From assembly GCA_965645245.1 (NCBI GenBank), contig OZ287077.1, forward strand, positions 1,302,001-1,366,000: a stretch of DNA of 64,000 nt. The letters run 5' to 3'. This stretch comes from Massalongia carnosa. Taxonomy: Eukaryota. The notes below the pieces were generated by a model that was not told the DNA's origin, did no database searches, and saw only the letters and a program-made list of their open reading frames with translations. The translations under genes and the position numbers were made by a program. Within the stretch, counting starts at the first letter, position 1. Each line of letters opens with the position of its first letter. Below are positions 24,556 to 60,200 of this stretch, piece after piece.

Positions 24556-25611
24556 ACCATCGGTCCTCCTCCTTCTACACCATCGGTCCTCACCACGGAG
24601 ACGCCAAAGGCCTCACCGTGGGGCGACCGTCAAACATAGATTTGCTCCTATCTCTTCGCATCAAAACAATGCTAATTTAACGCGTTCACACGCGTCGCAG
24701 ACGTACGTACGGAAGAGGATACGAAGGCCAACCGCCGGGGGGTAGAATGCGCGCGTCCCTGCACCATGCTTCTAAGGGTTCAAGTCCCTTCATGCAGTCA
24801 TCAGCTGGAAGAAGATGTGGACCAAAGGAGCCGCATCATCCCCCACCCGGGCACAGTCGACACGCGTTCTAGCTCCTGAGAGTTCAAGTCTCCCCATGCA
24901 GTCATCAGCTGGGATCAACAGAACGCGTAAAGGCACCGGGGCGAATGCTGTCACCTCAAGAAAACTCCATCTCGGAGCAGAATAACAATATCCCATTTAA
25001 TAGGCCCGGCCTGTTAAATAAAATCGAGGAAAACAAAGTCACAAAACACATAGTCATCAATCACACGTTGTACAAAGCACACAGTCACAAAGCACACAGT
25101 CACAAACATACAGTCACAAACACACAGTCACAAAAAACACAGTCACAAAAAACACAGTCACAAACCAATAACACGTCCCTGTGAAGGGGGTTCTGCGGGG
25201 GCTCGTTAAGACAGATCTGCACCCCGTTAATATCGGAGTACATATTTTTAGAGGTTCAAGTCCTTTCTAGCAGTCATCAGCTGAAAATAATGTATTTTGA
25301 CACGGGCATGGTGTGGATTTGACACGGGTAGACCTCGATGGATCACAAAACGAATGAAAAGAGTTCAGCGGAACTTCGTTAATATTGTTCTCGAAGACCT
25401 CGTTAATAAGATTTTCATAGACCTCGTTAACAACGTTCGGTCATACTCTTAAAGGTTCAAGTCCTTTCATGCAGTCATCGGCTGAGAGCTAAAGACGTAC
25501 GACACGGGTCAGCTATGTCTATCACACGGGTCTCCTTCGTCTACAACACGGAGCCCTCCGGCTGAAAGAAATAAAACATATAGACACATAGTGTAGGGTC
25601 ACACCCTACAC
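24556..25611 (+). repeat. Unclassified non-coding dispersed element (copy X1) with four T-loop/B-box hairpin modules and a CACAGTCACAAA minisatellite
   Basis: 24556-25291 is homologous in inverse orientation to 56375-56743 plus 63300-63612. Right boundary uncertain. Confidence 0.75.
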
Positions 25612-34801: not shown

Positions 34802-35339
34802 TGTCAGGGCATAGAAGGAATAAGGGCTAAGCTAACTAAGCGGGGCTTAGTTCTACGGCTAGGCTTAGTCATATGGAAAGCAGTTGGTCTACGTTACGCG
34901 GCTGTTATCTACTGCCGAGAGTATAGTACGAGCGATCGAGATATACGAGGATGCTCGTACGATTAGTGAGCGGATGGTACGATACAGTCAGCACAGTGTC
35001 CACGATACAGTCAGCACAGTGTCTACGATACAGTCAGCACAGTGTCTACGATACAGTCAGCACAGTGTCCACGATGCAGTCAGCAGAGTGTTTAGCCGGC
35101 TTATCCGGTAGGAGTAATGGGCGGTCAAGATAGTTACAGTATCAAGGGCCCAGAGGGTCAAGGGCTTCGGTCCGGGTATATAAGGAGGCTGCTCGAGGGA
35201 GATGTAATCTTCAACGATTAGTCTTCCGCTTTACCTACATACTTCTTTTAGTATATTAGTATAGCAAATCATTAGTGTCTTCACATTGTCACATATCCCT
35301 AGGCCTGGTGTCTGATAATCGCCAGGTCTGACTCTTACA
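34802..35339. mobile_element. Solo LTR (538 bp) in LINE-C ORF1, with a 23-bp minisatellite at ~34979-35090
   Basis: TGTCAG..CTTACA termini, TSD GTTCG, repeat unit acgatacagtcagcacagtgtc(c/t), TATATAA at ~35177. Confidence 0.92.
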
Positions 35340-37762: not shown

Positions 37763-38437
37763 CATAGATTAGTTATAAAGGGTTGATTTATCTGTATTAT
37801 AAATGTGACGAAGCGAGATAGAAAATAGATTTCTACTATTGCGCCACCTGTCCTTCCCGACCAAAAGGCACAATACTTAGTCCGCAGACTAAGCTCTATT
37901 CTACTATAAATGGGACTCCTGCTATGTTCGCTGTAGGTCCTGCCGTCCGCACCACGCTTGGTCGAACCGTTACACTACCGCCCGTCTAGCTGCGGCTAGC
38001 CCCTAGCCGCTTCCAGTTAATTTTAGCCCCTAAGAATGGGCTCTTCTTAGCGTACGGCCCTCGCCGATTCGACTTAGAGAGTTTTCATCCAACGCTTTCC
38101 CGTTTCGTCCTAGCTTCAGTCCGTCGAAGCAAGGCGAAAAAGCGAGGAATTCAGGCCAGAATCGAACTCACGACTAGTACACCGATTGATGACTAAGTAT
38201 TCTGTGACGAAGCTGTGACGAGGCGGCAACGGGGGGGCCTATTCAGGTGGTAAAGGTGGTGGCATTGCTAGCTATGACTATACTAGATAGACACAAGGAA
38301 GAAAGCATCAATTGCTGCAGAGATTTTCCATGTAACTCCCGGAACCCATTTCCTTACCTGAATGCGGTTAGCTCCCCACTAAGGCTAACGCGATACCTAA
38401 AACATTTAGCGTGTCGGGAGGTATCGCTTAGCAGAGC

Positions 38438-40766
38438 TAGGGCTTTGGAATGAAACTTTCATGAAATTTTGCCTAACCGATCGGGATGAAAGTTTCACTG
38501 CGACTTTCACGAGTGAAATTTTCATGGATGTTTTGCAGGGGGGTAGGCAGGGGGGAGGGGGGGTGCGGGGAAAGCGGAAAATAGGAACGAGGACATGCCA
38601 ACTTGAAGATACTTGATTTAGCTATTAATCTTCATACAATCTCAAGTATCTCTGAGCCTGACCGCATCTCCCTCTATCGCTTGACTTGCTGGTCGTTTCA
38701 ACGAGTTTACTGTCGCTGTTTCTTGCAGAGAGATTTCTTCCTGCAACAATCTGTCTTCCATCTCACATAGATCGTCTTCTTCTATGTCAATGCCTGCGAA
38801 TTGTAGCTTCCTTTTGATTTCTTTCGGTCGGTTAAGAGTTCTTTCATTCAGATAAATAAACATCAGCTTATCCACGTTGATCGATGCCATGGAATTTCGA
38901 GTCTTGTTCATGATCAAATTCATGACCGACCAACTTCTTTCTGCCAGCACTGAATTGCCAGGAAGCATCATTACCTTTCTGGCCAGCTTGCTAAGAATCA
39001 ATGCAAAATGCTTGCAAAAATTCCAAAACAGCTCCGGTGTCATCTGATAAGTCCAACATTCTGAGTTTGCATGAAATCCATCTTCCTGATCTCGAAAAGC
39101 AAGCCATTGTCTCATGGCAACGATGCTATCTTCAGCATTCAGATATCGAGCAAAGAATCTATGCATGATCGATAAAAAAGCATGTTCTGTAGTAACTCCG
39201 ACCACCTTTATCGTACGATTTTGCGGAAGCAGACGAGATGCAACCACATGAAGCTCTGTTATTTGACTGAGATATCTAGCTTCCCAAACGACGTGAGCAA
39301 TGTGATATAGATCCGCCTCACTGTCGCTTTCTTCTTCGGCCATCGAGAACAGATGAGAGCGAATGATATTCCAGTTATTTGTTACGGTGTATAGCTTATA
39401 TCCCTCGGCTTCGGACATGTACTGAAGTTTATGAATGGGACTCAGTATCTTTTTGACCATGGGCAGTTTCTTCCAAAAGGAATAATCGTTGACGAAACTT
39501 CCCAAAGGTTTATTTCTTCCCTGATCTATGACTGGATTCTTCTGCTGAAAATAACCCAACAAGGCCTGTTGCTTATCCAGTACTGAATTTTAAAGACCAA
39601 CCGTCGTACCCCATCTGGTGAGAACGTTGAGAACCAAGGAACGACGCTGTTTGTATGCCTTCATTTGGAATTTCCATAAACTGGCTAATTCCTTATTTGA
39701 TCCGCGAAAACTGATGACGATCAACTGAGCCTTTTCTATAACATCTGTAAAATAAGGAAATTTTAAAATGTCTCCTAACAATAGCTGCAAACCATGACTA
39801 TCGCAAGGTACGAAGAAAACATGCTTCATCTCTGCACTTTTCGAAATTTCCGTCCACATGGCTTTCATTGTAGAGCACGTGTCGGTGCAGATACAATTAA
39901 CCCTTTCAAGCTGATTGTTGGTAGCATCCCTAAATCCATTTATCACCCATTCAGCTTGTACGACTGCCGTCATTTTTTCCGCTACTCCGACATCAGCTTT
40001 TAGCTGAAATCCTCCGCCAATAGAAGTGACAGATGTGGGAACGTGACAGCAGAGATTTATTACTCGCTCTTTTCGAATGTTGGCTATCTCGTCGGTAAAA
40101 AAGCTGAGATGATTGCAAGCATTCAATTTTTGATTTATTTTGAATTTAACTGTTTCATAGGCTTCATCTAACAATCGTCCAGCCATCAGTCTGGCATGAG
40201 GGGGCTTGTATCCAGGAGAAAGAGCTTGAAATGCCGCAATAACATAGGGATTCTCGAAGTGGTTGAAGGGAAGATTTGTCATATAAACAGACATCGCCGC
40301 CTCGCGATGAGCATGAGCAATTTGACTCTGGCTAAGGGGACGAATCATGGTGGTAATGGGCAGTTGGATTGATCTAGAACTGAACGAGGCATTTTCCTTC
40401 TTTGTTATCTTCTGTTTGTAGGCATCACATTGATCTAAATGTGATAGTCCTCTTACAGCATTCTTGGTAGTCTGATGACCACAATGAATGCATTGATACT
40501 GAGGTTTTTTCAATCCCATGGTAATCACGTCTTTGAAATTCTCCTCAATTAGAGAAATTTTCTTTCTTCCACCGCGTTGAGCCATGAGTATAAAATAGGA
40601 AGATACCTTTAAATATATGAGAGTGACTATCAAAATGAGGTATCGATCTATCTACAAGATATGTATATGTGCTTAGTAATAAATTTCGAAAATTTCATGC
40701 TTGGCGCGCACACGTGATGAAATTTTCGTGCGACCTTGTCAAAATTTCGAAATTTTCAGAGCCCTA
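38438..40766 (-). mobile_element. hAT DNA transposon (2.3 kb) in the G1 3' LTR
   Basis: 8-bp TSD AGCAGAGC, TIR TAGGGCT(T/C)TG(G/A)AA. Confidence 0.93.
38642..40585 (-). pseudogene. hAT transposase (~647 aa) with one in-frame TAA at 39590-39592
   Basis: BED-like zinc finger (YQCIHC..HLDQC), FFTDE, CDSH, TRWG and C-terminal SVLAERSWS motifs. Confidence 0.88.
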
Positions 40767-40829
40767 AGCAGAGCATCTCGCGCTCACACCATGACAGTAG
40801 CTCCCCCTTCAAGGCCTGCTTCCACGCAG

Positions 40830-43800
40830 GCTTTATAGCTTTAGGACGGTGTGAGCTATCGTGGCTTGGCTGGGTATTGTTGATGAAATTCTGCCTACCC
40901 TTTCCTTGGCGTTAGTAACATACTCAGCATACTCCCAGGTGGGGTCGTTCCAGCCCGTCCATTGCACCAGGTACTTTAGGCGGTTTCGAAATTTCTTGGA
41001 GTCGAGAATTTCTTCAACCTCGTATTCTTCTTCGCCTTCGACTTCAACAGGTGGTGCAGGAGGGGGATGTGATCGGGATGAGGGTGTTGCGGCACGGGCG
41101 AGAGAAGGGATACGTGGAACACAGGATGAATTTTCATGCCGGGGGGCAGCTCGAGTTGATACGCGTATTTGCTTACCACCTTAGATATCTTGAATGGACC
41201 CAGATTTTTCCAGTCGAGCTTTCGAGCAGGTCTTTGAGTACGGATGTTCTTAGTACTCAACCATACTCGTCTCCTGCTTGGTAACTTGGTACTGGTACAC
41301 GATGTTCATTGGCTCCAGTCTCGTACCTGGCTTGCGCGAACTTCATCTCTTCCTTCAGCACGGACGAGATATCTTGCATCTTCTTGGCAAACTCCCCTGC
41401 GTTTAGACTGGCTAGGGATCGAGAGGGCTCAACCGATTCGAATCCCATTCTCGGATGAAATCCCATCTCGGCCAGGAATGGGCTGCACCCAGTCGTCTCG
41501 GACACTACATTGTTCCCTGTGAATTCTGCCATGGGTAACCAACTTGCCCAATCGTCTTGAAGATAGTCCGTGTAGCTTCGAAGGTATTGTTCCATGGAGG
41601 CGTTTACTCGCTCGGTTTGACCGTCCGTTTCTGGATGGAAGGCCGTTGATAACAGGCTCTTGATACCCGGTAGTTGACAGAGCTTTTACCAAAATTCCGA
41701 TACAAAGAGCACTCCACGATCCGATACTACGGTGCTCGGCAACCCGTGTAGTTTCCAAATATCTCGAAGAAAGAGTTCAGCCAGTTCCTGAGCATTGATC
41801 GTGGTGAGGCATGGAGAGAAGTGCCGTCGTTTCGATAGACGACCGACCACCACTAATATGGTGTCGAACCCACTACTTTCTGGAAGCCCAGTCACGAAGT
41901 CTATCGAAATATCTTACCAGCGGCGCTCCGGGACGGGTAACGGTTTCAAGACTCCCATTTTTCCTTGACGAGAGGGCTTGCTTCTTGCACAAACTTGACA
42001 ATGTTGTACGTACCTTACTATAAACTGATAGAATCGTGGCCAGTAATAGTGACGTTGCAGAAGATCAAAGGTCTTGGCTCGACCGGGATGACCAGCCACA
42101 GGGCTATCGTGAACGGACTTGCAAAGTCTCATTTTCAGGGCGTGTGAGTCCGGAACGTATATCTTTCCTCGATAGTGCAGTCGGCCATCCATCTCTGTGC
42201 ACTCTGCCAGCGAGATTTCCTTGGAGTGTCTAGCACCTGATCGTAATAATTCCAGAATTCTCATCGGAAAGAGGTCCTTTTCCAATGCTTCTTGCCATAA
42301 TTCTTCCAAGGTCTTGATTTCATCCTGATTTGAGGCGATTTCCAGAGGTTCACTTTGTTCCGAGGCTTCAACATTTTCTTCGAGAGGTTCATCTGCTAAT
42401 CCGTTCGCTAGAAGTTCAAGATTTCGAGGTTTCAAGACCACTTGATGTTGAATTTTTATCCGTGGATCATCCTCCCCCTTCGGTAGGTCTTGAGACCTTC
42501 CAGTCAGGGCGTCGGGTTTTCCACCGCTTTTCCCTGGGCGGTACATGATCTGGAAATCGAAGCGGGAGAGACACTCGGACCAGCGTGCTTGACGACGACT
42601 GAGCTGTTTCGTTGTCATGAAGTATTCGAGATTCTTATGATCAGAAATGACTTGAATGGGAAAGGCGGCTCCTTCGAGCTCGGATCTCTATTCCTCGAAA
42701 GCTCGAATGATGGCCATGAGTTCCTTGTCATAGATCTCGTAATTGATTTCCGCGGGGGCGTGTTTTTTCGAGAAGAAGGCTACAGGGCGTAGAACTCCCT
42801 CGTCATCGTACTGTGAGAATACACCCCCCACTACCCAGTCGGAAGCGTCAACTTCTACCACGATTTTCTTTTCAGGATCGAAATGCATCAGAATGAGATC
42901 GCTAACAAAAGCGTTTTTTAGCCTTTGAAACGCGGCCTCACACTCGGAGTTCCAAGAGAACACGGTCCCCTTTTTCGTCAGTTTGATCAGGGGCGAGGCA
43001 ATGGCTGAGAAACCCTTGACGAAGCGTCTATAGAAATTTGCGAAGCCCACGAAAGCTTGAATATCCTTAATGTTCTTGGGTGTTATCCAGTCCTTGATCG
43101 TCTGAACTTTTCGTGGGTCCATCTTGATTCCTTTGTCCGAAATGATAAGTCCCAGGTAAGTGGTTTCCGTGACGAAGAACTCACACTTTTCTATGTCCAG
43201 TTGCAGACCTGCGGACCTCAGAGCTTCAAGAACTTTTCTTACGTGAATCTTGTGTTCCTTCTTTGATTTACTGTATACAAGAATGTCGTCGATATAGGCG
43301 GTGCAAAAGGCATCTAAATATTCTCAAAGGACGTCGTTGATATAGTGCTGAAAGGAGCCGGGCCCCCCTGAAAGTCCGAAAGGCAATACTTCCTATTCGA
43401 AGAGACCGTACCTGGTCTTGAAAGTGGTCATCCATTCTTGCCCGCTCTGCATTCGTAGCTTGTTGAAAGCCGCGATGATGTCAAACTTAGTGAAAATCAT
43501 GGCCTTGGCAAGACGATCTAGTGTTGCTTGAATCAGTGGTATTGGATAGCGATTCTTGATCGTGATCGCGTTCAGAGCTCGATAGGCTACACAGAAACGC
43601 AGTCCTCCCGACGGTTTTCGGGCGAATAACACGGGCGAGGAGCAGGGCGAGGAGCTGGCACGAATAAATCCTTTGCCTAGGTTTTCTTTCAAGTATTTCT
43701 GCAAGACTAGTAGTTCAGGAGCTGACATCTTGTACAGCGGGCCTGACGAGGGTATGGCTCCTTCCTTGAAACGATTTTATGATCGTAGGAGCGGTGCGGG

Positions 43801-44855
43801 GGTAGTTTATCGGCTTCTTGCTTGGAGAAGACGTCTAGAAGATCGTGAAATTCCACGGGCACTATACTGGCGGGATCGATGATTTTCTTGGGCTTCAAGG
43901 ACTTGGCGATATCTTCGAGGGACGAGGCGGAGAGATTGAATTTCTCTCTCGGATTTCTGAGTTGTTCAAGGGCTTTGTCAATTTCATACATGGAAGCGGT
44001 GAAGATTTCGTTCTTCCAGTCCTTCATCAGGGTCGAGAATGGAGCGGCTCCAACCATGTAAATGCTCATAGGTGAGGGATCGGGAGATTCCGTGCAGACC
44101 GTCATTGGTCGTGCGTTCGAGATCGGTGGCTCAAGAAGTGTTCGGGATTCAGGACTTGAAGGAGCGTTTAATACACTGACTTCGAGAGTTCTAGGAGTCG
44201 AGCGAGAGACCTTGTTCTCACTAACTTTCAGTGTTTCAGGAGTTTTCATACAAGAGACCTCGTTCTTGCGTGATTCGACGGTTTTCAAGGACAGGGACGA
44301 AGCGGACTCAGGAGTCCCTTCAGATGGATCAGGAAGGCCAGAAATGACAAGAGGGACGTGTTTATTCTCTAAACACTCCTGGAAACAGTACGTGGACGAG
44401 AAGGTCAGGGTATTTTCAGTCCAGCTGACGGAGGGGTCATGAATTTGAAGCCACTTGACTCCCAGGACGACAGGATAATGACCCAGTTGGGTAACTAAGA
44501 ACGAGCCTTGCTCGGAATGACGGTTTATTCGCATCCTTGACTTGATCAGATGAGTAACTTTTCCGGCCGCCGCGGGGCGACCATCGACTACTTCGAGGAT
44601 ACGAGGACGGACAAGAGGGGTGAAAGGCAGGGAATTGTTTCGCGCGAAGGATGAATCAATGAATGCGTAGCCCGAGGCACCGCAATCAATCAGAGCATGG
44701 GTGTGTATAACTCGATTTTCCACAGAGAGTGCTATAGATATGACACAATGTCTACCGTCTAACGAATCTTCTGAGAGAGAAAAGGCTGAAATCGACACAG
44801 GGACCCCTTCTGAACGTCTTCGGGGGCGACTTAGCCCGAAGACGACGCGTTTTCC
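40830..44855 (-). pseudogene. G1 pol (protease, RT, RNase H, integrase, chromodomain), disrupted
   Basis: [57 protein letters not shown]. Confidence 0.92.
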
Positions 44856-46496
44856 GAGACCTCAGCTAGAGAGGACTCGTTCAGCCGAGAGGTTCGTGGC
44901 TTGGTTTCTCCCTTTCGAGGGCAGACGGCCGCAAAATGTCCTGACCCCCCACAGTAGCGGCACAACCCTTCGTTCATCCGACGGGTGACTTCTGCTTGAG
45001 GTAACTTACCTCTGTGTGTGGCGGAGAGGTCCATTGGCTCGGCGGCCGGAAGGGGAGACGGGGAGGCGGCGGAAGAAGAGACGGATCGGGGGAGGGCGAC
45101 TCCTCCCGACCGGGGGTTATGAGGGGGGGTCCCCACACCAGAAGAAGGTGGGGTGGACCGGGGGGAGTATGGCTTCCGGAGGGAAGCATTGACATTCCGT
45201 TGGCGGGTGTCTAGCCGTTAGAGGAGGGTCACCAGTTCGTCGAGGTCCTCGGGAGTGATTTGGGTAACCATGAGCTGCTTCAGCTCGTCACTGATGCCTT
45301 CCAGCAGAGCTGAGCGCATTGCCTCCTCGTCGAAATTGGTATCCGGGGTGTTGAGGATAGCCGAGATGTCTGCTTATAGAAAATGGCACTAACCCCAATG
45401 CGCACTAGCTATTGGAAGTATTTGGATTGGCCACCTTGGGATTTATCATCAACATCCCGCGTCTGATATTCTAGGAGACATTCGAACATTCTACAGTGGA
45501 TTGATAATGAGGCAAATATGTCAGCTTTGGAACTCCGACAAAGACGAGCTTACATATCAGCATTTGACTGACCGATCACATAGAAAGTGGGAGAATCGTG
45601 CTCAAGGCAGGCAGCGGTATATAATGGGCTATATGCCCCCATAGATAGCCTCAGTCATTTTCAATCAATCATTAGTAGCCTGCCATTGGATCAGCTTGAT
45701 CATCGCACGTACTTTTTGCTGTTGTTTCCTACTTCCACCCCTATAATCCGTAGCCTCCGCAACACGGGGCATACGCTGGAAGTCCGAGAGGTAGACATGG
45801 AATTCCTTGTTGGCCTGGCGCAGGGACCGCAGTTCCCGCTGTGCCGTGGCCTTTTTGTCCGGGTCCCCAAAGGCCCTCTCCAACATAGCCAATAACCCTG
45901 CCACATCGGGGATACTCACTTCGTTGTGAGACTTGACGTAGGGTTGCACTTGCGCCATGGCACGACCCTCTAAGCGGCTGATGGCGTACAGAAGGCCGGC
46001 TTTGGGATTCGTGAAACGGTCTTGATTCACAAAGAGCTTCAGGTTAAGCTGGGTGACCCACTCGCGCAACTCGTCCTTCTTGCCCGAGAACTTCGGGATG
46101 TCCGGCAATTTCTCTGAGCACGCCTCGCGCTGGGCGGCGGGATGATGATGATGGTCACTGATCTGCTGACGGAGGCTGGCGATGGTGGCTCGAGAGGCGA
46201 TGTTCTCGTTATTGGAGGTCTGCAACTGGCTACGGATATTATTATGCTCAGCTTCCAGAAAGTCATACTGATTTGATTTTTCCGTTAGAAAGCCCTGAAG
46301 GGTCGCTGATCGGTTGGGGGACTGAATGGCTTGATGATACCATTCATGAGGGAATTTTTGGACCGATTGACTCCAGGCCTCAATAGATGCAACATGAGGG
46401 GCGAGAGAATCCTCGTCATCGAAGCTTGGGGGGGGAAAGGCCAGGACTTGATTCGGAACGGGGCGTGGCTATCTTGGACGAGGAACTGGAAGTCAT
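44831..46496 (-). pseudogene. G1 gag, disrupted by a solo LTR, a frameshift and stops
   Basis: LPDIPKFSG, SRLEGRA, LRQ, EPMDLS and CRYCGGSGHFAAVC knuckle. Confidence 0.85.
45349..45764. mobile_element. Solo LTR (416 bp), copia-like termini, in G1 gag
   Basis: TGTTG..CAACA termini, TSD CGGGG. Confidence 0.9.
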
Positions 46497-46624
46497 ACTA
46501 AAGAGGTGAATGAGAAACGAGGAACGGAGCACCACCTGAACACGGGTGAGGTGTTCGTAATGTGACGAGGCGGCAACGGGGGGGCCTACTCAGATGGTGG
46601 TGGTGGCATTGCTAGCTATGACTA

Positions 46625-48437
46625 ACGTAATTTACCCTCATTCGGGTCAGCCCCCGATTCGGGTCAGCCACCCAATCGGGTCACCCCACCAAAAAAAAAA
46701 CCTTCGCCCTACACCAAAGAAAAATATTACATTGCGTCCACCATCCCCAAAACTAACTAAAAACACCACTATCCATCTGCATTTCCTTCCATACGGCCTT
46801 TGCGAACTTTACTTTACCATTTAAAGCATGGTACCGTTCCTTTTGTTTGGCCAATGCTTCTTCCTTCCTCTGTTTTTCCTCCGCAATCGCCTGCCCTTCA
46901 CCCACAGTCAGCACCCTCGCTTTAACACCCCCCTTTCTGGATGCTTTTTGACGTCCCTGAGCCTTTTTATCAATCAGTTCTTGATTGGTGTGTCTTAGAA
47001 TAACCCTATCAGCGACGGCATTCAAAGCAGTTGTTTTAAGCAACTCAACATGCGCGCGAAGAGATGGAGTTATACAGGATATAAGGGCATCACTGACTTC
47101 CTGGATTCGCTGCTCCGTTTGGGGGGCATCGGTGACGGTGTTTGGATAGGTAGGAGGTGTGATAGGCCTAGGCAACTTGCCTAGAACATGCCCTGGATTA
47201 AATGGGATGAGGCCTGCCCCCCGCCATGCACTCATGATGTTAGTAGCCTGTTTCCTAGCCACCTGAATAAGGCGCAAAACATCTAGCTTAGAAATAGTCA
47301 CAGCCCCGTAACGTGATTGGCTGGAAACGAGTTGTTTATAGGCCTTAGATAAAGGGCCAAAAACACCGACATCCAGGGGCTGCAATAAATGAGTTGAATG
47401 TGGTGGCAAACAAAGGGGTATGGTTTTCTCTTGGGCACAAAACTCCATAAAAGGAATGGAGACGTGACTCTCATGGCTATCTACAATTAGCATCCTATAC
47501 ATGCCTCGTTCAGGTTTTGTATGCTTATTGAACACCGTTTGCAACCAATGAAGGCCTATCTCCGCATCCGTCCAACCATTGGGACTGACCCGAACGGTAT
47601 CTGCCTTCGTCTCCATAGCATCATACCATGCAGGTTGAACTTGGGCACCTTGGAAAATGATATAAGCCGGAAGAACTGTTCCGCGGGATGATATGCACTC
47701 AATAAGAGAAACCCAGTCCCTATTTCCCGGATGCACATTGAATGGTATTGTTGTTCCTTTGATTATGACCTTCGAACTGTCTGCGATGCCCATAGCAAAG
47801 CCTTTTTCATCCATGTTGTAAGTATCTTCATCTGAAATCCCATATTTGACCAAGGTGGTCGTGTACAATTCGAACCAATCACGCAAAATTTCGGGACTAC
47901 CAGCGTCCTTTCTGGATTGATCGAGGTTTCTATTGTATTTGATTTTGAAATCGGGATGCCTTTTCAGGAACTTTTCATACCAATGACGACCCAACGGATT
48001 TTTGTCCCCTTTGGCGTTCAGGAGACTTCTGGCCATGCCTTCCAAATGTTGGATACGAGGCGGCCAACCCCATGAGGTCATCCGCTCTATCCAATCAATC
48101 AGAGCCTGTTCTTCGTGGACGGATAGCCTTTGGGCGGCTTGATAATAGTGTTTTGCGGCCCGCCTGCCTTTGAGCCGGGCCTGTAAAGTCGACTGAGGAA
48201 CTCCGTAAAGGCGCGCTATTTCCCGCTGCGAAATGCCCGGATTTATGGCTAATTCTTCGATAGCCAACTGTAATCTAGTAGCAGAGTCAAGTGTAGGCAT
48301 ATTAATGGACATTTTATCTACAATTAATAGATAAATATATAGTAGTGGTAGATAAACAGGATAGAATTTTTTTCGGTCGCTAGATTTTAATGGGGTGACC
48401 CGAATGGGGGGCTGACCCGAATGAGGGTAAATTACGT
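46625..48437 (-). mobile_element. Fot1/pogo DNA transposon P1 in the G1 5' LTR
   Basis: TA TSD, TIR ACGTAATTTACCCTCATTCGGGTCAGCCCCC with subterminal repeats. Confidence 0.95.
46753..48312 (-). CDS. Fot1/pogo transposase (519 aa, open)
   Basis: HTH N-terminus, CENP-B-like region, DDD motifs MDEKGF, IVDSH, QPLDV. Confidence 0.92.
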   Translation of the reverse strand: MSINMPTLDSATRLQLAIEELAINPGISQREIARLYGVPQSTLQARLKGRRAAKHYYQAAQRLSVHEEQALIDWIERMTSWGWPPRIQHLEGMARSLLNAKGDKNPLGRHWYEKFLKRHPDFKIKYNRNLDQSRKDAGSPEILRDWFELYTTTLVKYGISDEDTYNMDEKGFAMGIADSSKVIIKGTTIPFNVHPGNRDWVSLIECISSRGTVLPAYIIFQGAQVQPAWYDAMETKADTVRVSPNGWTDAEIGLHWLQTVFNKHTKPERGMYRMLIVDSHESHVSIPFMEFCAQEKTIPLCLPPHSTHLLQPLDVGVFGPLSKAYKQLVSSQSRYGAVTISKLDVLRLIQVARKQATNIMSAWRGAGLIPFNPGHVLGKLPRPITPPTYPNTVTDAPQTEQRIQEVSDALISCITPSLRAHVELLKTTALNAVADRVILRHTNQELIDKKAQGRQKASRKGGVKARVLTVGEGQAIAEEKQRKEEALAKQKERYHALNGKVKFAKAVWKEMQMDSGVFS

Positions 48438-48875
48438 TATACTAGATAGACAAGACGAACACAAAGAGGAAAGCATCAATTGCTGCAGAGATTTTCCATG
48501 TAATTCCCGGAACCCATTTCCTTACCTGAATGCGGTTAGCTCCCCACTAAGGCTAACGCGATACCTAAACATTTAGCGTGTCGGGAGGTATCGCTTAGCA
48601 GAGCATCTCGCGCTCACACCATGACAGAAGCGAGATAGTAAATAGATTTCTACCATTGCGCCACCTGTCCTTCCCGACCAAAAGGCACAATACTTAGTCC
48701 GCAGACCAAGCTCTATTCTAATCGTCGGCTAGTCTCTCGCTTACCTCGGCCGACTCGAGGCGTTCGCCTCTAGTCGGGGAAAGCAAAGTTCGTCTTTTCA
48801 ACTTATACACGCAAAAAATCAATCAAATAACGATGGGAATTTTTTTCTGCAAAGATCAAGCATGAAAAATGTTAT

Positions 48876-51800
48876 GATGATGATGATGATAAATTCTTAC
48901 ACCAATATGTCACCGGCCGAAGGCCGGCCCATGCGGGCGTGGTTCTATATGACTATTGTACATAAGGAAACCTTTTAAGGAATAAAAACCTAGTAACCAA
49001 AATTATCGCCTGCGGGATCCCCATGACCCCTCAGTGTACCTAAATAACGTGTATCTGTGAGGTCCTTGAAAGAAAACGGAAAAGAACGAAAGAAAAGGGG
49101 AAGAAGTCAAACCTTTCAAATGCTGTGTCGACGGGAACTATCCGTACAGCATGGTCGCTGCAATTGAAAACTGTTTTAGTATATCTGCCCGCATTAACCA
49201 TGCTGTCAGCTTTTTCAATTTTGCGGAATTTTCAATTATCGTGCGATAATTGTTAGTTTTCACTTGATTAAATAATTCATTTCTTCCGTCTATCAGCTGA
49301 CAGTGCATGATGACGTGTTTGGCCGTCTGCCTTGGCCATCCACATATGCACGCCGGTGAGTTTACATTGGGTACCCTTCGGTTGAAAAGAAAGTTGGCTA
49401 GCCCGATTTTCTCCGTGCGAATTTCCGTTGCTAGTGAACTCTCCGCTTTTGCCAAATTGCTGTGAATTTTTAATCTCTTTTTGTCAAGCGAAGCTTGTTG
49501 AGCCTCGGTGGGGAGTGGAATGCGATTTTGATAAGTCGCCCATGTTGACTTCCATATTTTCATATGATGCTCCATGAGCCGCGTATGATGTGCCCGTTGG
49601 GCCGTTCGCGCTTCTCTCAGCTCCTTGAGATATTCTGGACTGGCCTCGTACCACGGGGGCGCGGAAGGCGGTAATCTGACGGCGGCCTCTCCATTTAAAA
49701 TTGCCTTGGCCCATGTGTGTTTCAGTTCTCCGGGTGTTGGCGGCGGAGTTTTTCTTCGACCCGCTCTTTCCCGTAGCTTATTAGCTATTATCTTGCATGC
49801 GGAGTTAGCGAGTGCTTTTTGCCCCGTGATTCGTAGTCGATATCTGGCTTTAGCCTGTAGTTGATCCAAATACACATCTATTGGGGCTATGTGTGTTTCT
49901 GCCTCCAGCACCGGTATCGGGGTAGCCTTGAACGCTCCGGCGACTGTGCGTAGGCATCTGTTCTGAATGACCGCTAATTTGGACGTTATAGATTTATTTC
50001 TATTTACGTCTTTCGGGGTGTGCCAGACGATTGAACCATATGTCATGGCCGGCCGCACCACCGCCGTGTATACTTGCCTGGCCCTAGCGAACGAAGCTCC
50101 CCAGGTAGACGTGGAAATTTTTGTTAAGGCCATGCTCTGCTTGACCATCTTCTCCTGCGTTTTCCGTATGTGAGCACCCCACTTAAGTTTGGTATCTATT
50201 TGAAGACCGAGTATTCTTATATCCGCTTTTGGTTTGATTAGGCTGTTTTCTATATTAATAGTAGCCGTCATATCAAATTTCTTTGGATTTCTAGATAAAT
50301 GAATAAGCTCGTACTTAGTCGGAGCAAATAAGGATCCGTGCCGTAGAGCCCATCTTTCACATTCTCTGTGAATTCTTTCTAGCGTTCTGCAATTTTCTTG
50401 CGTGCTTTTCCCATATGCTAGTACATTGATGTCATCGACGAATCCGAGTCCGCTCGTTTTCGTGCCGGGCCTGTTACATATGTCTAGTAAATCCGCATTG
50501 TAGAACAAATACAGAATGGGAGAGATGGGTGAACCTTGCGGAATTCCGGTTCTCGCATCAAACTCGTCGGTGGTTCGTCGGTTGATCGTAAGAGTGGTCC
50601 TTCTGTTTTTCAAAAAGCATTCTATCCAGTTGGTGACCCACTGTGGAATTTTTCTTCTTCGAAGATTGTGGATCAGTCTTTGATGCGAAACCGTGTCGTA
50701 CGCGCCGGCCACGTCCATGCTGAGCAGCGTGGCAACTTTATCATTACCTTGACCCCACACTGTGTGAATCTGTTCGGTTAACAGCTCTAGTGCTGACTCG
50801 GTGGACCTTTCCCGTCTGGCTCCCATCTGGGTGCCTGGTAGTAACTCGTGCTTTTCGGCCATGTGAGTGATCTTGCTTGCCATGATGGCTTCCATCACCT
50901 TGCCTAGCGTATTCAGCAGTGCTATCGGGCGATAGGCCTTCGGCGTTTCGTAATTGTCTTTGCCCGCCTTTTTCAGCGTTATCGTATGCGCTGTTCTGAA
51001 TGCTCGCGGGTGATATCCCAGATTTACGCACGCCTGAAATAGAGGAGTTAACAACTCGGTCAGCGTCTCAGAGCACGCTTTGAGAACTCTATTGGGTATG
51101 CCATCCGGTCCAGGAGCCGTGTCGGGTTTGAGGCGTAGAATGTTCGTGAGCACCTCTTTCTTCGTTATGACTGTTGGGCACTCCGAGGCTGCCGGATAGA
51201 CCGACCCGGGTATGTCCTGTAGATCTGCCGGAGGTGGAGCAGGAAAGAAGATGCCTTTCAGCATTTCAGCCTTCTCTTCGAAGGTGTTCGCGCTGTGATT
51301 GTTGAAAGTCAGTGTTGGCATTTTTGGTGTTTCGCGCGCCTTGTGACTCTTGTCATTTGCCCATTTCGCCAGCCGCCATATGCCCTGAGATGATTCAGAC
51401 GCTTTACTGATCTCGTTTCGGAATGACAATGTTTTGGCTTTCTTGATTATCTTTTGCTTTTTGTCATTCGATTTCATGTACGTTTTCCAGTCATTGATAT
51501 TTCGAGAGGCTGTCCAAATTTTTCGAATTCTGCGTGTTTCTATCATGGCGTTGTTGCAGTCCTCGTTCCAGAATGGTTTTGCATAAGCACTAGGCCTTGC
51601 CCATGGAACGGCCGCAGATATTATTTCATGTAAGAACTTTTGTATTTTATCCGTCTGTCGATCAATCTCCTCCACTGTGTGAGGAAGTGTTATCGGGGGA
51701 GCGTTGCATTCTGCTGTTCTCAACTTTTCCATGTTCAGCAGCTTCCAGGCTCTGCGTTTTGTCTGTGTTAGCGTCTCACTTTCCAAAGAGATGCGGGAGG

Positions 51801-52245
51801 ATATCGGAATGTGATCGGATGACTGATTGAGTTCTGGTCTTGACATGCAGTGAATTAGCCTCTCTGTTAGGAATTCTGACATGAAAACCAAATCGATGGT
51901 GCTGAATGAGTTTCGGGCTTCCCATGTGACGGTTCCATTGGGCAGGGTTAGCGACAGATTGGCTTCATCGACTATATCTAGCAGCTGATCCGCGGCTGCG
52001 TGTTGCGTGGGTCTGGTGGCTCCATTCCAGAAAGGATGATGTAGATTAAAATCCCCGAGTAAGATGTGATGAGCGTCGGCGGAGAGCTGGCGTTGAGCAT
52101 CTGGGAGGGTGGAGGGGCTGTCTCTTGAAGAATATGAGGTGGGTGATGGATTATAGACGTTGTGAATGTGTATTTCCTTGTGGCTTCCGTCATTCTTGCG
52201 GGGGTGCAATATCAATGTGCATATGTCAGCGGTTGGAAATTCTAC
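48876..52245 (-). mobile_element. LINE-D: 5'-truncated LINE, open ORF2 frame (52215-49138, partial EN, RT, CCHC, no RNase H), (ATC)n tail
   Basis: 13-bp TSD TGAAAAATGTTAT at 48863-48875 and 52246-52258; GDFNLHH, FVDD, CICGW..KHVIMHC. Confidence 0.95.
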
Positions 52246-54057
52246 TGAAAAATGTTATAATAGTAGTTATACTAATAATAACCCATCTGCTCCTGAATAT
52301 CATCCTCGTCGCTGTCGTCGACATCGTCGCCTACTTCCTCTTCTATTTCAAAGGCAACGAAGTCTTTTTGTAGACCAATAGAATCACCTTCACCTATAAA
52401 TCGTAGGTTTTGATCTCCTACAGTATTCATCATAAAGATAGTTTCTGTCTCTTCCTCTTCATCATTGAATATATGAGTATCTTTTACTCCTTTCTTCGTC
52501 TTTCTTTTGGTCTCTTCCGTCTGCCAAGTAATGTCGCTCGCCTTCCAAATGGCCTCATGATCACCAATGGGATTCAACATTTCATCGGATATGCTAACTC
52601 CCTGTTTGCGAGGTCTTTAACATGTTTTATTCTGATATTTTCATTCTTTCTAGCGATAACACCTTCCGCGTGTACACTATCTCTTTTTATTCGCCATGTT
52701 CTCATGAAGTTGTTGTGTTCTCGTTTCATTTCTATCTGCTCATCTTTTGCTGTCTTTCAGCAATTGCTCGTTGCGCATCCTCCTTCGTGAGTCCTTATCC
52801 TCCGTCTGTCGAGTAATTAGGTCTTAATCACTTGCGATTAGTTGCTCTTTGTAGTAATTCATTGCTTCTTCGCTCATGATGAAGTGATAATTCGAAGTTC
52901 GTAAGCGTCGATTTGGCAACAACTTCTTTCGTATTATTCACGACTTCCTCCAACTCCTGTTCCCGGACTGGATCACTCTATTGTGTATTATCGCGAATTT
53001 TGGGTAGCCATTCAAGTAATCCTCTTTCAACATCATCGAACGTTTTAGGTTGAATTCGTGGCAATGTTGGAAGGGATAATGTTGAAAAAGAAGAAGAATT
53101 ATTCTCACTTTGCGAAGGTACAAACCTCTTTAGCTGTTCAGTGCATTTCTTCTCATTAATAGGCCACATTCTAGGATCTTTCAAAGGCAGATTGAATAGT
53201 GGATTTCTTGAATGTGTTATCTCGTATTTTGGTTAGATCTTGAGAAAATCGAGTTATTGTATACTCTACATTGAACTCCGCAATCGCTTCTTGAATGGTC
53301 ACATCATGCCAATATTTATAAGGTTGAAACACTCCTACATCAAGCGGTTGCATACAATGCGTCAAATGTGGTATCAAAGGATAAGGACGAATCTAGTTTT
53401 CATTGGCAAGGTTGATGAATTCAGGAGTAACATGACTACCGTGATTATCCATGAGCATCAACTTCCAATCACTCTCAGATCCTGCATCAGAATTTTCAAT
53501 GTAATGTTGCAGATATGTAATCTCTATTTTATCTGATATGAATCTATTTTCTGACGAAACAAGTCGAGTTCCTTTAGGCAGTTTATCTGCAAACCAATTG
53601 CTCATCATATCATGACCTTGTATGACAAGTAAAGGAGGTGGCGGATAATCACCGGCGGCGTTTATATTCTCGAAAATGGTGATAGATTTTCTATTCTCAG
53701 GACTAATAGAATAATACTCCTTTACGTCTGTTGGAACCAAAATTTCATGTCCCTTCATGCAGCCAACTCGAAAACCAGCCTCATCAAAATTGGTGATATT
53801 TCGTTTATTCTTGATATTCAGCTCTCGAAGAACCACCCGATAATCTGCGAACCATGCTTCAACGTCCTTCACTTGTCCCGCCGTATAGCGAACGACTGCT
53901 AGCGGTTTAGTCTTAATCTTATGTAAATGGTTGGATTTCCACCATGTTCTAAACCATCGCTTAGTAGGACCTTTATAATCAGCATTCTGACTTCGCTTCA
54001 GACTCTTGATCACGTTGAATATCAGTTCATGCGTCGGTTGAACACCATATGTAAGTA

Positions 54058-55838
54058 ACGTAATTGCCACCTATTCGGGCCAGCCACCTACTCGGGCCGC
54101 CCCATCAAAATCCATTGGCAACCTAATTCTTTTCCATTATCATTCATCACCACCATCCAACTATATTCAAATGAATTCAAAATTAGATGTATCAGATTCT
54201 AATACTCGTTTAGAATTAGCTGTTGAATATTTGCGGGAAAATCCTAATGTATCACAACGAGAAATGGCCCGTATTTATGACATTCCTCGATCGACGCTTC
54301 AAGCTCGTTTACGGGGGAGACAACCTGCAAAATCCTATCATCAGACTATGCAAAGACTATCCGTACAGGAGGAATAAGCACTGATTACATGGATTGAAAG
54401 AATGACTGCATGGGGCTGGCCCCCTCGAATTATATATCTTGAAGGCATGGCTAAGTATTTGATAGAGGCCAAAGGGGATCGAAAAGCGCTTGGACACCAT
54501 TGGTATAAAAACTTTTTGAACAGACATCCTGAATTCAAGTTAAAATACAATAGAAATTTGGATCAGGTCAGAAAAGACGCTAGCGACCCTGTTATCATGA
54601 AGGATTGGTTTGATTTGTACATGACCACTCGCGAGAAATACGGTGTCGCAGATGCAGATATATATAACATGGATAAAAAAGGATTTGCCATGGGCATTGC
54701 GGACAGTTCTAAGGTCAATAATAAGAGGTAATACAGCACCTTTCAATGTGCATCCAGGAAACAGGGATTGGGTCACTTTAATTGAGTGTATATCCTCTCG
54801 CGGGAGTATTCTTCCTGCTTATATCATATTTCAAGGTGCTCAGATTCAGCAAGCCTGGTATGCAGCCATTACGGATGAGAAAACAACTATTCGGGTCGGT
54901 CCCAATGGATGGGCGGACCGGGAAATAGCTTTGCATTGGTTAAAAGAAGTTTTCCATCCACAAACAAGTCGCACTCAAGGGGTTTATAGACTGCTGATTT
55001 TCGATGGGCATGACAGTCACATCACAATGGAATTCATGGAGTTCTGCGATCAAAACAAGATTGTACCCTTGTGTCTACCTCCTCATTCCACCCATCTATT
55101 GCAACCATTGGACGTGGGTATTTTTGGACCATTGAGTAAGGCCTACAAGCAATTAGTTTCCAGCAGATCTCGTTACGGGGCCGTAAACGTCTCGAAGATG
55201 GAATTTCTAAATCTAATTCAGGTCGCAAGAAAACAAGCCATGTCCACCACCAACATCCTGAGTGCCTGGCGAGGAACAGGTCTGGTTCCGTACAAACCTC
55301 AGCATGTTATAGGCAAATTACCTAGACCAGTCACTCCTCTATCTTGTCGCGACGTCAATAATGACACTCCCAAAACGACCAAACGGATTCAAGAGGCCAG
55401 CGACGTTTTGTTGACTCGTATGACTCCGTCTCTCCGCGCGCATGTTGATGTTCTAAAAATAACCGCTTTGAATGCTGTTGCTGATAGAATTATTTTACAG
55501 CATACCAATCAGGAATTGATTGCCAAACAGGATCAACGACGTCAAAAGACGTCTAGAAAAGGGCATGGAAAAGCAAAAGTGCTGACGGTGGGTAAAGAAC
55601 GGGAGTTGGTAGAGGAGAAGAGGCAAAAGGATGAAGTATTGGCCAACAAAAATGCACGATATCATGCTTTAAATGGGAAAGTGAAGTTCGCGAAGATTGC
55701 CTGGAAGGAATTGGCCATGGACAGTGATGTTTTTAGCTAGTTTTGATGTTGATAGAGGTAATGCGCTGATGGTGTTTCTCTATTTGGCGATGATGGTGAA
55801 ATTTGCGGGTGGCCGGCCCGAATAGGTGGCAATTACGT
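54058..55838 (+). mobile_element. Fot1/pogo transposon P3 (related to P1); transposase 54171-55740 with a stop at 54375 and a frameshift near 54720
   Basis: TA TSD, TIR ACGTAATTGCCACCTATTCGGGCC, protein collinear with P1. Confidence 0.94.
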
Positions 55839-57239
55839 TAACGAGCAAATGAACTCATGTATTGCTTTGATCTGATGCTTCTCCAATATCTTATTATGTC
55901 CTCCTCTCTTCTCGACTTCATTCGACGCGGCTGTTTTAAGCAAGTAAACTTTGTAAAGTGGTACGAGGAATGTCAAATATGCGAGCAGCGTATATCTTGC
56001 TTTCAAGTGGATTTTCTATTAGAAACTACTTAGCATCATTCAGACGCGTGACAGTATCATTACAATCCATGATTATGATGATAATCAATAATGAAATAGT
56101 TGATGTAGTCAAATGCGTCGTGTTGATGGAATGGAAATAAAATTGCTTTCCGCCGGACTTTGCTTTTCCCGACTAGAGGCGAACGCCTCGAGTCGGCCGA
56201 GGTAAGCGAGAGACTAGCCGACGATTACTAGAACTAGGACTCCTGCTATGTTCGCTATAGGTCCTGCCGTCCGCACCACGCTTGGTCGAACCGTTACAAT
56301 AAAAACATATCCTAAAATAGATTAGTGTCATAACCTTAGGTTGAATACACTTAATGAATAAATAAAAAAATTAAATTATTTTCAACTGATGACTGCTAGA
56401 AATGACTTGAATCTCTAAAATTATGTACTCTGATATTAACGAGATGCAGATCTGCCTTAACGAGTACCCGCAGAACCCCCTACACAGGGACGTGTTATTG
56501 ATTCGTGACAATGTGTTTTGTGACTATGTGTTTTGTAACTGTGTGTTTTGTGACTGTGTATTTATAACTATGTTTGATGAATGTATATTTTGTGACTGTA
56601 TGATTTATAAATATATGTTTTATGTCTATGTTTTGTGACCGTGCTTTCCTCGATTTTTATTTTACAGGCCGGGCCTGTTAATAGAGATATTGTTATTCCG
56701 CTCCGTAAGGGAGTTTTCTTTGAGGTGGTAGCATTCGCCTAGGTGTTATGATCTACCTAGAGACAAGTCATAGAGACACTAGGAACGAATACAATAAAGA
56801 TAAAGAAGGATAAATACAATCGACAACCAGAACCTGCTCCTATATATCCTCTACTGCGCTAGTACCCATGTGGTATAGTCGTCATGGAACCTTCTAGTAG
56901 CTGCAGGAACGAAATCGAAAGTGCCTGCGTATTCCATCTACGAATGCCCTAGGCGGTGCCAAGTACCGAGGTCGTTGTAAGGAAGCTGTCGTCGATTCTA
57001 ATCAACCGCTATTAAACCAAAATTTATCTACAAAAGAAGAAAAGAATCATTGTGCGCGACTCACGAGAAATATCTGCACCGAGTGTCGCGCTAGCCTCGC
57101 GTGCTCGCGTGCTCCCCTTCCATCTCAGCCTTATGTCAGGCTAGGACCCTGACACTATCCCCCTTCTTATTGGCGAGGTCTCCGAAGCGCTAAGTGGCAG
57201 GCGCCCTGCCAGCTAGCCTGATTCTTGATTATCATCTAT

Positions 57240-60200
57240 TTAAGTTAGATCATCTGGTGGTTTGGGTTTCTGTGGATGTTCTCGATGATATTGGAGGATT
57301 TTGTCCTTTGAATTCTTGAAGTCGGTCCATGGTTGCCAGTAAGGGTTCGCGTTCCGTTCATCCCAATTTCCAATGAAGGTTGCTTTGTACTGCACGCCGA
57401 ACTTTCTTGTTTCGCGGCAGTCTATCATTTCGAGGACTTCCCATTCTTCGTGGGCCTCCTCTTCGTCGTTTTCGGTTATGGCTATGGGCGGTCCAGGCGG
57501 TAAGACTTGTCCTGGGAATGGGTTGGAAGGTGCGAGATGTAGCTTCCACGGATGAAAGATGGGGGTAAGCCCGACGTTCTTTAACTGATCCGGGATCTCT
57601 AATTCGTATGCTTTATTGTTAATAATTCTTATTATCTTCTATGGTCCTATGTTCTTGAAGCTTAATGATCTGCTGGGTCTTTCTGAAGCAAAGTGCTTGG
57701 CGTTTACATAAACCATGCCCCCGATTTTGTATTCGGGGTGAGGTTGACGGCCTTTGTTTGCGTGTCGTGTTTGTTCTTCCTGAGCCCAGGCTAATTGATC
57801 TCGGAGCCAGGTTCGCATGGCTTCTTGCCGTTCTATGATTTTGTCAGCATGCAGTATCTCTACTTTTCCTTTTCTTTCGTATGTGCCTGGTGGTTCGATG
57901 CCACAGCGTGGGTGGAAGCCATGGTCTGCGAAGAATGGAGTCATTCCCGTTGATACATTTACATGATTGTTGGCGGCAAACTCTGCGTCTGAAAGATAAT
58001 CCATCAAGTTGTCTTGTGTGTAATTGACGTATGCTCGGAGATAATTTTTCATTACCTTGTTGGCGTTTTCGGTTTGACCGTCTGTTTCGGGATGATGTGC
58101 AGATGAGAATTTGATTCTCACCCCGTATCTTTCGCAAACTCTTTTCCATAAGTGAGCGGTTAGTTGACTACCGCGATCGTTGACTGTTGATATAGGAAAT
58201 CTGTAAGAGGAGAATAATCTCCTGGACATCGCATCCATCAGTTCATCAGTAGAGAGAGAGGTTAGTGGTTCATATAAGCGTCTTTTCGTTAAACGATCTA
58301 CTATCACTAATATGTGTTGATAGACTCTGTTTCGTCTTCGGCATTCTGGAAGGAATTCGACGAAGTCCAATGACACGTCCATCCATTTTCTATTTGGAAT
58401 GGGAAGAGGATTCAGCAGGCCTTGCTTCTTGTCGTTGTATGCTTTTGATCTTCGGCATACGGAGCAGTTAACTGCGTATCTCTTGCAGTGATCCTTCATT
58501 TCAAACCAGAAATAATTTTCTCTCATTATCTGATACATAGTTTTGTATCCCGGATGGCCCTGTAATGGTGGTTCGTGATGCTTTTTCAGTAAATGTAGCT
58601 GCAATGGCTCGTAATCTGGTACGTATAGTCTTCCTTTGACATACAGCTTGTCGTTTTCTAGTTTGAGGTCCCCCATTGCTAGCTTTATTCCTCTTTTTAT
58701 GAGGTTCAATGGGAGTTTCCTCAGTTCCTTCCTCTTTGCTACTACTATATCTTGAACTGTTTCGTCTTTTTCGTAAGCTTCTTCAATTAGTCCCTCCAAA
58801 GTCTTCGTTACTGAGCTCTCGGTCTCGTCGATCACTGATGTAGGTTCTGCGTTGGGTTCCTCCGATCTTGTTGTGTCTTCCTCGATGAATTCGCTTTGAG
58901 TATCTTGATTGTTATCGTCGTCGTCATCGTCTTTCGCTGTGTTTGCGCAGAACACGACTGCTAACGCTTTTCGTACATCGTCATCTAGTTGATGCTCTTG
59001 AAGCATCATTTGAAACTGATGTTGCTCTCTGATATCTTCGAATCCTTTCGGGAGATCTTGAGAGCGTCGAGTAAGCGTATCCGGTTTCTCTCCTTGCTTT
59101 CCCGGTCGATACATAATCTTGAAATTAAATTCGGAAAGAAATTCGGCCCATCTGGCTTGCCTTCTGTTTAGCTGCTTCGTGGTCATGAAGTGCTCTAAAT
59201 TCTTGTGATCGGTGTATACTTTAACAGGTTTATCAGGAGCAGCACTTGCAACCTCGGGGCGCCAGACTTCGAAGCTCTTTACAATAGCGAGGAGTTCCTT
59301 ATCATAAATCATATAGTTACACTCGGCAGGGGTCATCTTCTTGGAAAAATAGGCTACCGGTTTCAGTACTCCATCGTGCATTTGAGAGAGTACTCCGGCG
59401 CTGACGAAATCTGAAGAGTCAGTCTCGACCCATGTTTCCAGGGCCGGATCGTAATGTGCTAAGACGGGAGCGGTGGTGAACGCAATTTTTAAATCTTCGA
59501 AGGCCTTTTGACAATCTTCAGACCATACAAACGAATTATACTTGGTTCGTTTCTTTCCTGATTCCGTCGTTATTTGTTCGCCCTTTATTAATTCTGTTAA
59601 CGATCTCGTCCGTTGCGAAAATCTCGATATAAATCGTCGATAAAAATTCGCAAAGCCTAAAAATGCTTGCACGTCTTTTACGGAGCCTAGGGTCTCCCAT
59701 TTCAGAATTGCCTCGATTTTCTCCGAGTACATCTTTATTCCATCGGTGGTAACTATCAATCCAAGATACTTTACTTCCGTCACAGAGAATTCGCATGTGT
59801 CTATGTCCACTTGCAGTCCTTTCTCCTTCAATCGAGTTAGAACTTTTAACACTTGTTCGGAATGCTCTTCTTCCTTTTCGCTATAAATTAGGACACCGTC
59901 CAAGTACGCAGTGCAGAAGACGTCTAAGTATTCTCTGACTGTATCGTTAATGAAGCTCTGAAAGGTTCCCGGAGCGTTGCAGAGACCGAATGGCATTACC
60001 AGATATTCGAACTGACCATATCTGGTATTGAAAGCCATTAGCCATTCGTGGCCTTCCTTCATTCTCATACGATTGAAAGCGGTAATCACATCCAGTTTTG
60101 TGAACTTCTTGGCTTGTGATAGTTTTCCCAACGTTTCATTTATCAACGGTATTGGGTACCTGTTCTTGATCGTGATGGAGTTTAAGGCTCTATAATCTAC

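Follow-up and report, generated by a model that had tools for sequence, protein, structure and literature searches.

The window analysed here is a stretch of 64,000 nucleotides from the genome of Massalongia carnosa, which comprises 52 Mb including one probable mitochondrial contig; the host is probably a filamentous fungus. Positions 1-36300 of the window are occupied by a dense LINE cluster in both orientations, with reverse transcriptase and RNase H frames of more than 1000 aa and scant sign of heavy C-to-T decay, and two short tandem repeats lie at 34978-35092 (23 bp) and 25026-25165 (about 15 bp). Further along, a TRIM is inserted on the minus strand in the 3' tail of a LINE-like repeat (Table 1). 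Its 5' LTR is divided into three pieces by two large insertions, namely a nested Gypsy element, which has its own 5-bp TSD (38209-38213 and 48627-48631) and hAT and DDE transposon insertions of its own, and a DNA transposon with DDE_1 frames, which separates the TATA-like site from the primer; the window copy is therefore dead. The three pieces sum to 171 bp and share 164 of 171 sites with the 3' LTR; the whole element, insertions included, is bounded by a 5-bp duplication. The range 37804..38213 given by the original prediction does hold part of the element, but the rest of the 5' LTR lies outside it, and the third 5' LTR piece and the tRNA-type A and B boxes had been missed.

Table 1. Parts of the TRIM in the window and the insertions that interrupt it
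Position	Strand	Feature	Remarks
37799..37803	.	TSD, 3' side of TRIM	same 5 bases as 56299-56303
37804..37974	-	3' LTR, 171 bp, TG...CA	164/171 identity with 5' LTR pieces
37872..37882	-	primer 11-mer, 3' LTR copy	predicted local RNA hairpin
37975..37987	-	polypurine tract (PPT)	TAG end adjoins 3' LTR, as in group A Gypsy
37975..38202	-	TRIM interior, 228 bp	non-coding
38137..38141	-	five-T run positioned like a tRNA-gene terminator	+142 to +146 from primer; intact in 37/40 copies
38159..38167	-	tRNA-type B box	inside 16-nt exact tRNA-Met gene match (intact copies)
38191..38201	-	candidate PBS, 11 nt	one base past LTR end
38203..38213	-	5' LTR piece, U5 end	
38214..48626	-	nested group B type Gypsy, 8-nt self-primer	foreign to TRIM; Pfam domains, 5-bp TSD
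48632..48720	-	5' LTR middle piece	U3 end, R, U5
48650..48663	-	tRNA-type A box	+37 from primer; 14-nt exact match to host tRNA-Arg(CCT) gene
48689..48699	-	predicted self-primer in 5' LTR	predicted first 11 nt of RNA
48721..56225	.	DNA transposon, 74-bp inverted ends	foreign to TRIM; TA duplication, LINE inside
56228..56298	-	5' LTR piece, U3 start	
56299..56303	.	TSD, 5' side of TRIM	

On the element strand the 5' LTR ends in CA, followed by a single G and an 11-nt PBS; there is, as the original prediction had it, no TGG. Its 11-mer coordinates were also correct: the plus-strand sequence GACTAAGTATT occurs in the window only at 38191-38201, and its complement AATACTTAGTC only at 37872-37882 and 48689-48699. 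In an intact copy (L008) the primer occupies element positions 93-103, the LTR ends at 171 and the PBS occupies 173-183 after the one G. This copy contains no ATG-started ORF of at least 30 aa on either strand, in agreement with the non-coding interior of about 228 bp that had been claimed. The PPT has two C inside and was assigned by position.

In a genome search in which the best 40 of 475 candidate places were scored, 41 matches were of 400 bases or more, or nearly so, and the exact LTR-PBS junction occurs 52 times in the genome compared with 0 for a reversed control. Thirty of these 52 junctions were read, and all 30 run into the TRIM interior and none into a gag leader. The fetched loci contain 40 distinct full-length copies of 542-575 bp (family length 571 bp), among which an exact 5-bp TSD is present in 27, one with a single-base mismatch in 5 more, an identical LTR pair in 12 and a perfect primer together with a perfect PBS in 36. 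In four of four sequencing runs compared, contigs contain parts of the TRIM, with no listed variant within the primer or PBS. The 571-bp element is a young, recently active TRIM family. Because it is multicopy, with distinct TSDs and no ATG ORF of 30 aa, it is a TRIM and not a one-off deletion of a full element, a candidate origin that the genome copy survey refutes; the further copies with different TSDs that the original prediction named as a check are present in the genome. The insertions that break the window copy would suit a one-off deletion, an artefact of assembly or an inverted repeat arising by chance, but given the number of long matches and exact junctions, the distinct TSDs and the presence of the element in all four runs compared, such an origin has a negligible probability. 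The only Rfam match (E 4) is not meaningful, two scans of metagenome contigs found no relative, and a sister-family pattern combining an AAT-type PBS with both boxes gave 40 matches, all from the 571-bp family.

Of 20,000 dinucleotide shuffles, only 3 gave complementarity of at least 11 nt between the LTR and the sequence that follows it, and 11 nt at an offset of 1 lies within the limits described for self-priming in PMC6317226, where the PBS is 0-5 nt from the LTR and at least 10 nt are complementary to the 5' LTR. For an RNA beginning at the 11-mer, the primer/PBS duplex is present in the minimum-energy fold with pair probabilities of 0.73-0.99, and the primer copy in the 3' LTR is predicted to form a local hairpin, its pairing to the PBS being below 0.01. 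The stability of the short fold is not unusual (z -1.5), whereas that of the full fold is (z -3.3). Putative flanking duplexes like those of the Tf1 pretzel can be drawn, with nominal energies of -6.9 and -9.0 kcal/mol in a pseudoknot-free model, and their geometry matches that in the group A Gypsy elements described below. Covariation between primer and PBS, suggested by the original prediction as a check, was not seen, with a compensatory primer change in 0 of 6 PBS variants.

The family combines LTRs, a PBS and a PPT with 5-bp TSDs, exists in many recent copies, lacks coding capacity and shows perfect primer/PBS complementarity. We infer self-priming from these features and from the likeness to Tf1: the TRIM probably self-primes as Tf1 does (probability of roughly 0.85), with an RNA that would start at the primer. 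Priming by a tRNA or half-tRNA of the Copia type, with some other purpose for the LTR 11-mer, is very improbable. Most fungal Helenus TRIMs are described as having anticodon-loop primers, Copia helpers and 5-bp TSDs (PMC10886601), and the host set compared consisted of 31 nuclear tRNA loci and is incomplete; within that set, however, the longest complement to the PBS is 7 nt, there is no TGG, the TRIM layout is the same as that of self-complementary Gypsy elements of this genome, and the self-complement of a second TRIM family spans 17 nt, with no tRNA match reaching 6 nt there.

In Tf1, as described in PMC7175516, bases 1-11 of the RNA anneal to the PBS, and cleavage by RNase H falls between base 11 and base 12; the RNA structure is described as a pretzel in bioRxiv 10.1101/2022.12.06.519325. 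By analogy, the TRIM would be a non-autonomous element mobilised in trans by Tf1/sushi-type Ty3/Gypsy elements, with its own RNA as primer. The 5' end of this RNA would lie at or next to the 11-mer, which would pair with the PBS inside a three-duplex structure; RNase H of the helper would then cut past base 11, the 11-mer fragment would be extended by the helper reverse transcriptase, and the cDNA would be inserted by the helper integrase. The original reading of a self-priming, non-autonomous mini-retrotransposon gains support from the multicopy state, the integrase-type TSDs and the Gypsy-like, Tf1-type layout, with the priming step itself carried over from Tf1.

The helper survey covered 37 stretches around Gypsy reverse transcriptase genes, 33 of which yielded an LTR pair. 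A TGG PBS is present in none of these 33, and the arrangement of CA, one nucleotide and an 11-nt AAT...C sequence was scored in 6. There are three different Gypsy primer sequences, each complementary to its own PBS. Group A comprises nine stretches (six with a perfect 11 nt, two with a mis-called LTR end and one with a changed PBS) and is characterised by CA, one base, AAT...C and a PPT with a TAG end; group B comprises 23 stretches and one that was mis-called, with two spacer bases and a complement of 8-9 nt. The TRIM layout fits group A, as does that of a Gypsy element at 56976-63270 of the window. This element, on the minus strand, is of the autonomous type with an 11-nt self-primer and has numerous genomic reverse transcriptase matches at 94-97% identity. 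The family of the nested Gypsy has many near-identical copies, open Pol frames of 1335 aa and a chromodomain.

No LTR sequence is common to the TRIM and any of the 33 elements, the one match being of 27 nt (E 0.027), and a helper pattern joining a G-rich PPT to the TRIM LTR start gave no match, so the helper assignment is one of layout. On that basis, Gypsy elements with an 11-nt AAT...C PBS one base past the LTR are the likeliest helpers. The Pfam Chromo domain was found in the one group B Pol protein tested and in none of three from group A, and SH3_Tf2-1 was found in all four. The proposed parasitism of chromoviruses consequently holds only in the sense of Tf1/sushi-type Gypsy elements, Pfam having recovered no chromodomain in the three group A Pol proteins.

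A pattern search for inverted junctions at the primer gave four matches, one of which is a normal copy with a point change and three of which are real fold-back copies (L007, L062 and L063), with joints inside the primer/PBS repeat at +12 to +14. The copy on contig C7 (L007:1501-2367; G000:C7:2359172-2360038) is an 867-bp palindrome with a perfect 5-bp TSD and arms identical over 400 nt. The loop consists of the LTR from +13 onward, each end of the palindrome is U5, and the U3 of a 5' LTR is missing. Those on C16 and C18 are half-palindromes of an older subfamily; the far end of the C16 copy was not found within 20 kb, and a TSD was demonstrated for C7 only. Since the C7 copy integrated as one cDNA, the primer/PBS repeat evidently pairs during reverse transcription. 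The junctions fit a template ending near the primer and are compatible with, though no proof of, an RNase H cut past base 11; a fold-back at the DNA level would be sufficient to produce them, so they do not map the RNA start. The fold-backs record a rare error of reverse transcription by which an LTR element becomes a long palindrome, which could pass for a DNA transposon. No report of palindromic LTR cDNAs was found in the literature consulted (mostly open papers, Repbase excluded).

The PBS is flanked by two tRNA-type promoter motifs, an A box in U5, which matches the A box of a host tRNA-Arg gene exactly over 14 nt, and, past the PBS, a B box in the interior at +115, where 16 nt are identical to the B-box region of a tRNA-Met gene of the host; five T follow at +142. 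The spacing from A to B is 78 nt (43-127 in host tRNA genes), and both boxes are intact and in order in 35 of 40 TRIM copies. The strict A and B patterns were picked after the motifs had been noticed; of 29 host tRNA genes, 24 conform to the A pattern and 27 to the B pattern. Applied in order, they occur in 2 of 20,000 shuffles, or 38 if the A box is loosened, and in none of the 33 Gypsy elements. A tRNA gene pattern consisting of the A box and a preceding G had no match, the true match beginning one base later. At L135 (G000:C4:350292-350382), the ARAGORN call SeC(TCA) looks like a mis-read intron-bearing Leu tRNA gene. The TRIM boxes lack kept D and T stems, which suggests a role at the DNA level, an argument that PMC10886601 makes for Helenus. 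The boxes are real motifs that most likely bind TFIIIC; few inherited variants among the copies bear on purifying selection.

The sequence upstream of the primer lacks the features seen at the predicted starts of the helpers. The TRIM has a TATA-like site at -26, G at -1 and 7 pyrimidines in the 15 upstream positions, whereas among 29 helpers, which are not independent of each other, a TATA-like site lies at -41 to -35 in 21 and nearer in none, and a pyrimidine is at -1 in all 29. Measured from the A box, the primer is 36 nt and the TATA-like site 62 nt upstream, which exceeds the distances in host tRNA genes by about 20 nt; in those genes the AT peak lies about 42 nt upstream of the A box and TATA-like sites lie at -57 to -30, with two outliers closer. 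Five-T runs are found in 0 of 29 host tRNA gene bodies and four-T runs in 5 of 29; in budding yeast, terminators of five and six T are described as frequently read through (PMC4937561).

Three ways of making the RNA can be weighed against these observations. Transcription by Pol II from the LTR, as in the helpers, is a sub-case of self-priming in which the boxes would be a relic or a TFIIIC chromatin barrier, and its chances are only slightly below even. The long distances from the primer and TATA-like site to the A box agree with it, as do the five-T run, kept in 37 of 40 copies where host tRNA gene bodies have none, and the pairing that the RNA fold predicts between the first A-box bases and the end of the LTR. 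It sits less well with the position of the TATA-like site and the G at -1 compared with the helpers, with the rarity of the ordered boxes in shuffles and their absence from the helpers, and with the second TRIM family, which has TATA at -31, A box at +27 and B box at +95 and whose 5' LTR and interior are free of five-T runs. Pol III transcription is plausible from sequence, if somewhat less so than Pol II; the family would then tentatively represent a class of fungal TRIM that joins Tf1-type self-priming to a Pol III promoter split at the 5' LTR-interior junction. Alternatively, Pol III might start at the usual distance from the A box, at about +12 to +21, giving an RNA whose 5' end lacks the 11-mer and for which the 3' LTR copy or a different molecule supplies the primer. 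Purines precede the A box by 16-25 nt (at +12, +14 and +21), and two of the three fold-back junctions switch at +13/+14, but the 3' 11-mer is predicted to be locked in its hairpin, there is no AT-rich site 30 nt upstream and no precedent was found, making a start in this interval very unlikely.

The second TRIM family came from a genome search for A and B box pairs, with A boxes having G at the fifth place left out, which gave 32 matches against 1 for the control. We read these as seven tRNA genes, two tRNA-like sequences, two unassigned matches, two variants of the first TRIM, 18 matches in copies of a larger repeat and one new TRIM. This TRIM is about 591 bp long with 186-bp LTRs (L212:1356-1946; G000:C19, about 678434-679024; relatives at L215-L244), and among the best 40 of 78 candidates scored it is represented by five long copies and many solo LTRs. 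A 5-bp TSD is present in three of the five long copies. It has no significant similarity to the first TRIM, with which it has in common only a 9-nt motif after the primer. Its LTR ends in CA, followed by one G and the PBS, for which a 17-nt LTR complement exists in three of the five copies; 0 of 5,000 shuffles exceeded 12 nt. Its A box lies in U5 and its B box past the PBS. As this family was found through its boxes, these provide no independent evidence; the independent evidence is that the box search led to a TRIM that is self-complementary and whose LTR edge separates the boxes. Split boxes in two unrelated families, together with upstream sequence unlike that of the helpers, turn Pol III transcription into a testable, if still doubtful, claim.

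Element positions 112-123 of copy L008, directly after a four-T run, form an A-box-like site with one mismatch at +20, which is the place of the true A box in the second TRIM. The larger repeat (L188, L190, L192 and 13 more loci) exceeds 3 kb, has no long ORF in the 1.5 kb read downstream, and contains the sequence GGTGACA, which resembles an LTR end, together with motifs like an A box and, weakly, a B box; in 7 of 16 copies, two alleles after the end match two alleles of an upstream motif, as a self-primer might. The outer ends of this repeat were looked for and not found. At L044/L045 (G000:C9, about 713069-714277), L218 and L228, TRIM copies are nested in one another or copies of the two TRIM families are near neighbours, and this suggests shared insertion regions.

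If the split Pol III promoter is real, no transcription would be expected from solo and 3' LTRs, and the exact 5' end needed for self-priming would come from TATA-directed initiation by Pol III. The five-T run would mostly yield an RNA of ~146 nt with primer, U5 and PBS only, which could prime minus-strand DNA in trans on read-through genomes, and the helper RNase H would have to accept uncapped RNA. Tf1-type self-priming itself, whichever polymerase makes the RNA, would mean that a gene-free parasite of retrotransposons can retain a tRNA-free priming module. As the TRIM keeps this module and drops all genes, the module, the LTR ends and the PPT would constitute a minimal Tf1-type cis set. Annotation tools that rely on a tRNA PBS would miss such elements.

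Among autonomous Tf1/sushi elements and in some plant lineages, self-priming is established or has been predicted (PMC4600332, PMC6317226, bioRxiv 2022.12.06.519325, PMC6934838). In Tf1 and Tf2 of Schizosaccharomyces pombe, members of the Tf1/sushi group, the PBS adjoins the 5' LTR and is complementary to an LTR 11-mer, as in the TRIM (PMC7175516, PMC4600332). Other members are Tj1, Tosmo1-3 and Tcry1, and self-priming has been proposed for Maggy, Skippy, Cft-1, Boty, Grasshopper, Afut1 and Tcn1. The TRIM resembles the group as described in bioRxiv 2022.12.06.519325 and PMC6934838 in the lack of a tRNA site, as judged from the 31 host tRNA loci compared, and in its drawable flanking duplexes, but differs in the absence of gag and pol, its 571-bp length, its A and B boxes and an upstream region unlike that of the helpers. 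It works like the Tf1/sushi elements but cannot be placed among them by phylogeny, as it encodes no reverse transcriptase or integrase.

The GalEa Copia elements with a Conserved Hairpin Site are, like the TRIM, fungal LTR elements without a tRNA PBS, but according to PMC5445492 their hairpin lies past the LTR and has no LTR complement, whereas the partner of the TRIM PBS is inside the LTR. All features in the TRIM definition of PMC10886601 are present in the element (less than 1 kb, two LTRs, PBS, PPT, TSD and non-coding), which differs from known TRIMs in a PBS that would pair with its own LTR instead of a tRNA. No self-priming TRIM, with or without a Pol III promoter, was found in the literature covered, mostly open papers and exclusive of Repbase. 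Helenus/TRIMp3, Cassandra and Ajax are described as having 5-bp TSDs and tRNA-type A and B boxes without a tRNA fold (Kojima 2024, PMC10886601), as does the fungal TRIM here. In the same description, both boxes of Helenus lie within each LTR, its primer is a tRNA or half-tRNA, its helpers in fungi are Copia elements, and no pairing was found between its tRNA-like LTR part and the PBS. The TRIM, in contrast, has its A box in the LTR and a strict B box in the interior, with the self-complementary PBS between them, so that the boxes are split across the LTR edge and come together only at the 5' junction. If Pol III does transcribe it, TRIMs would have recruited tRNA-type promoters in a second way, beside that of Helenus.
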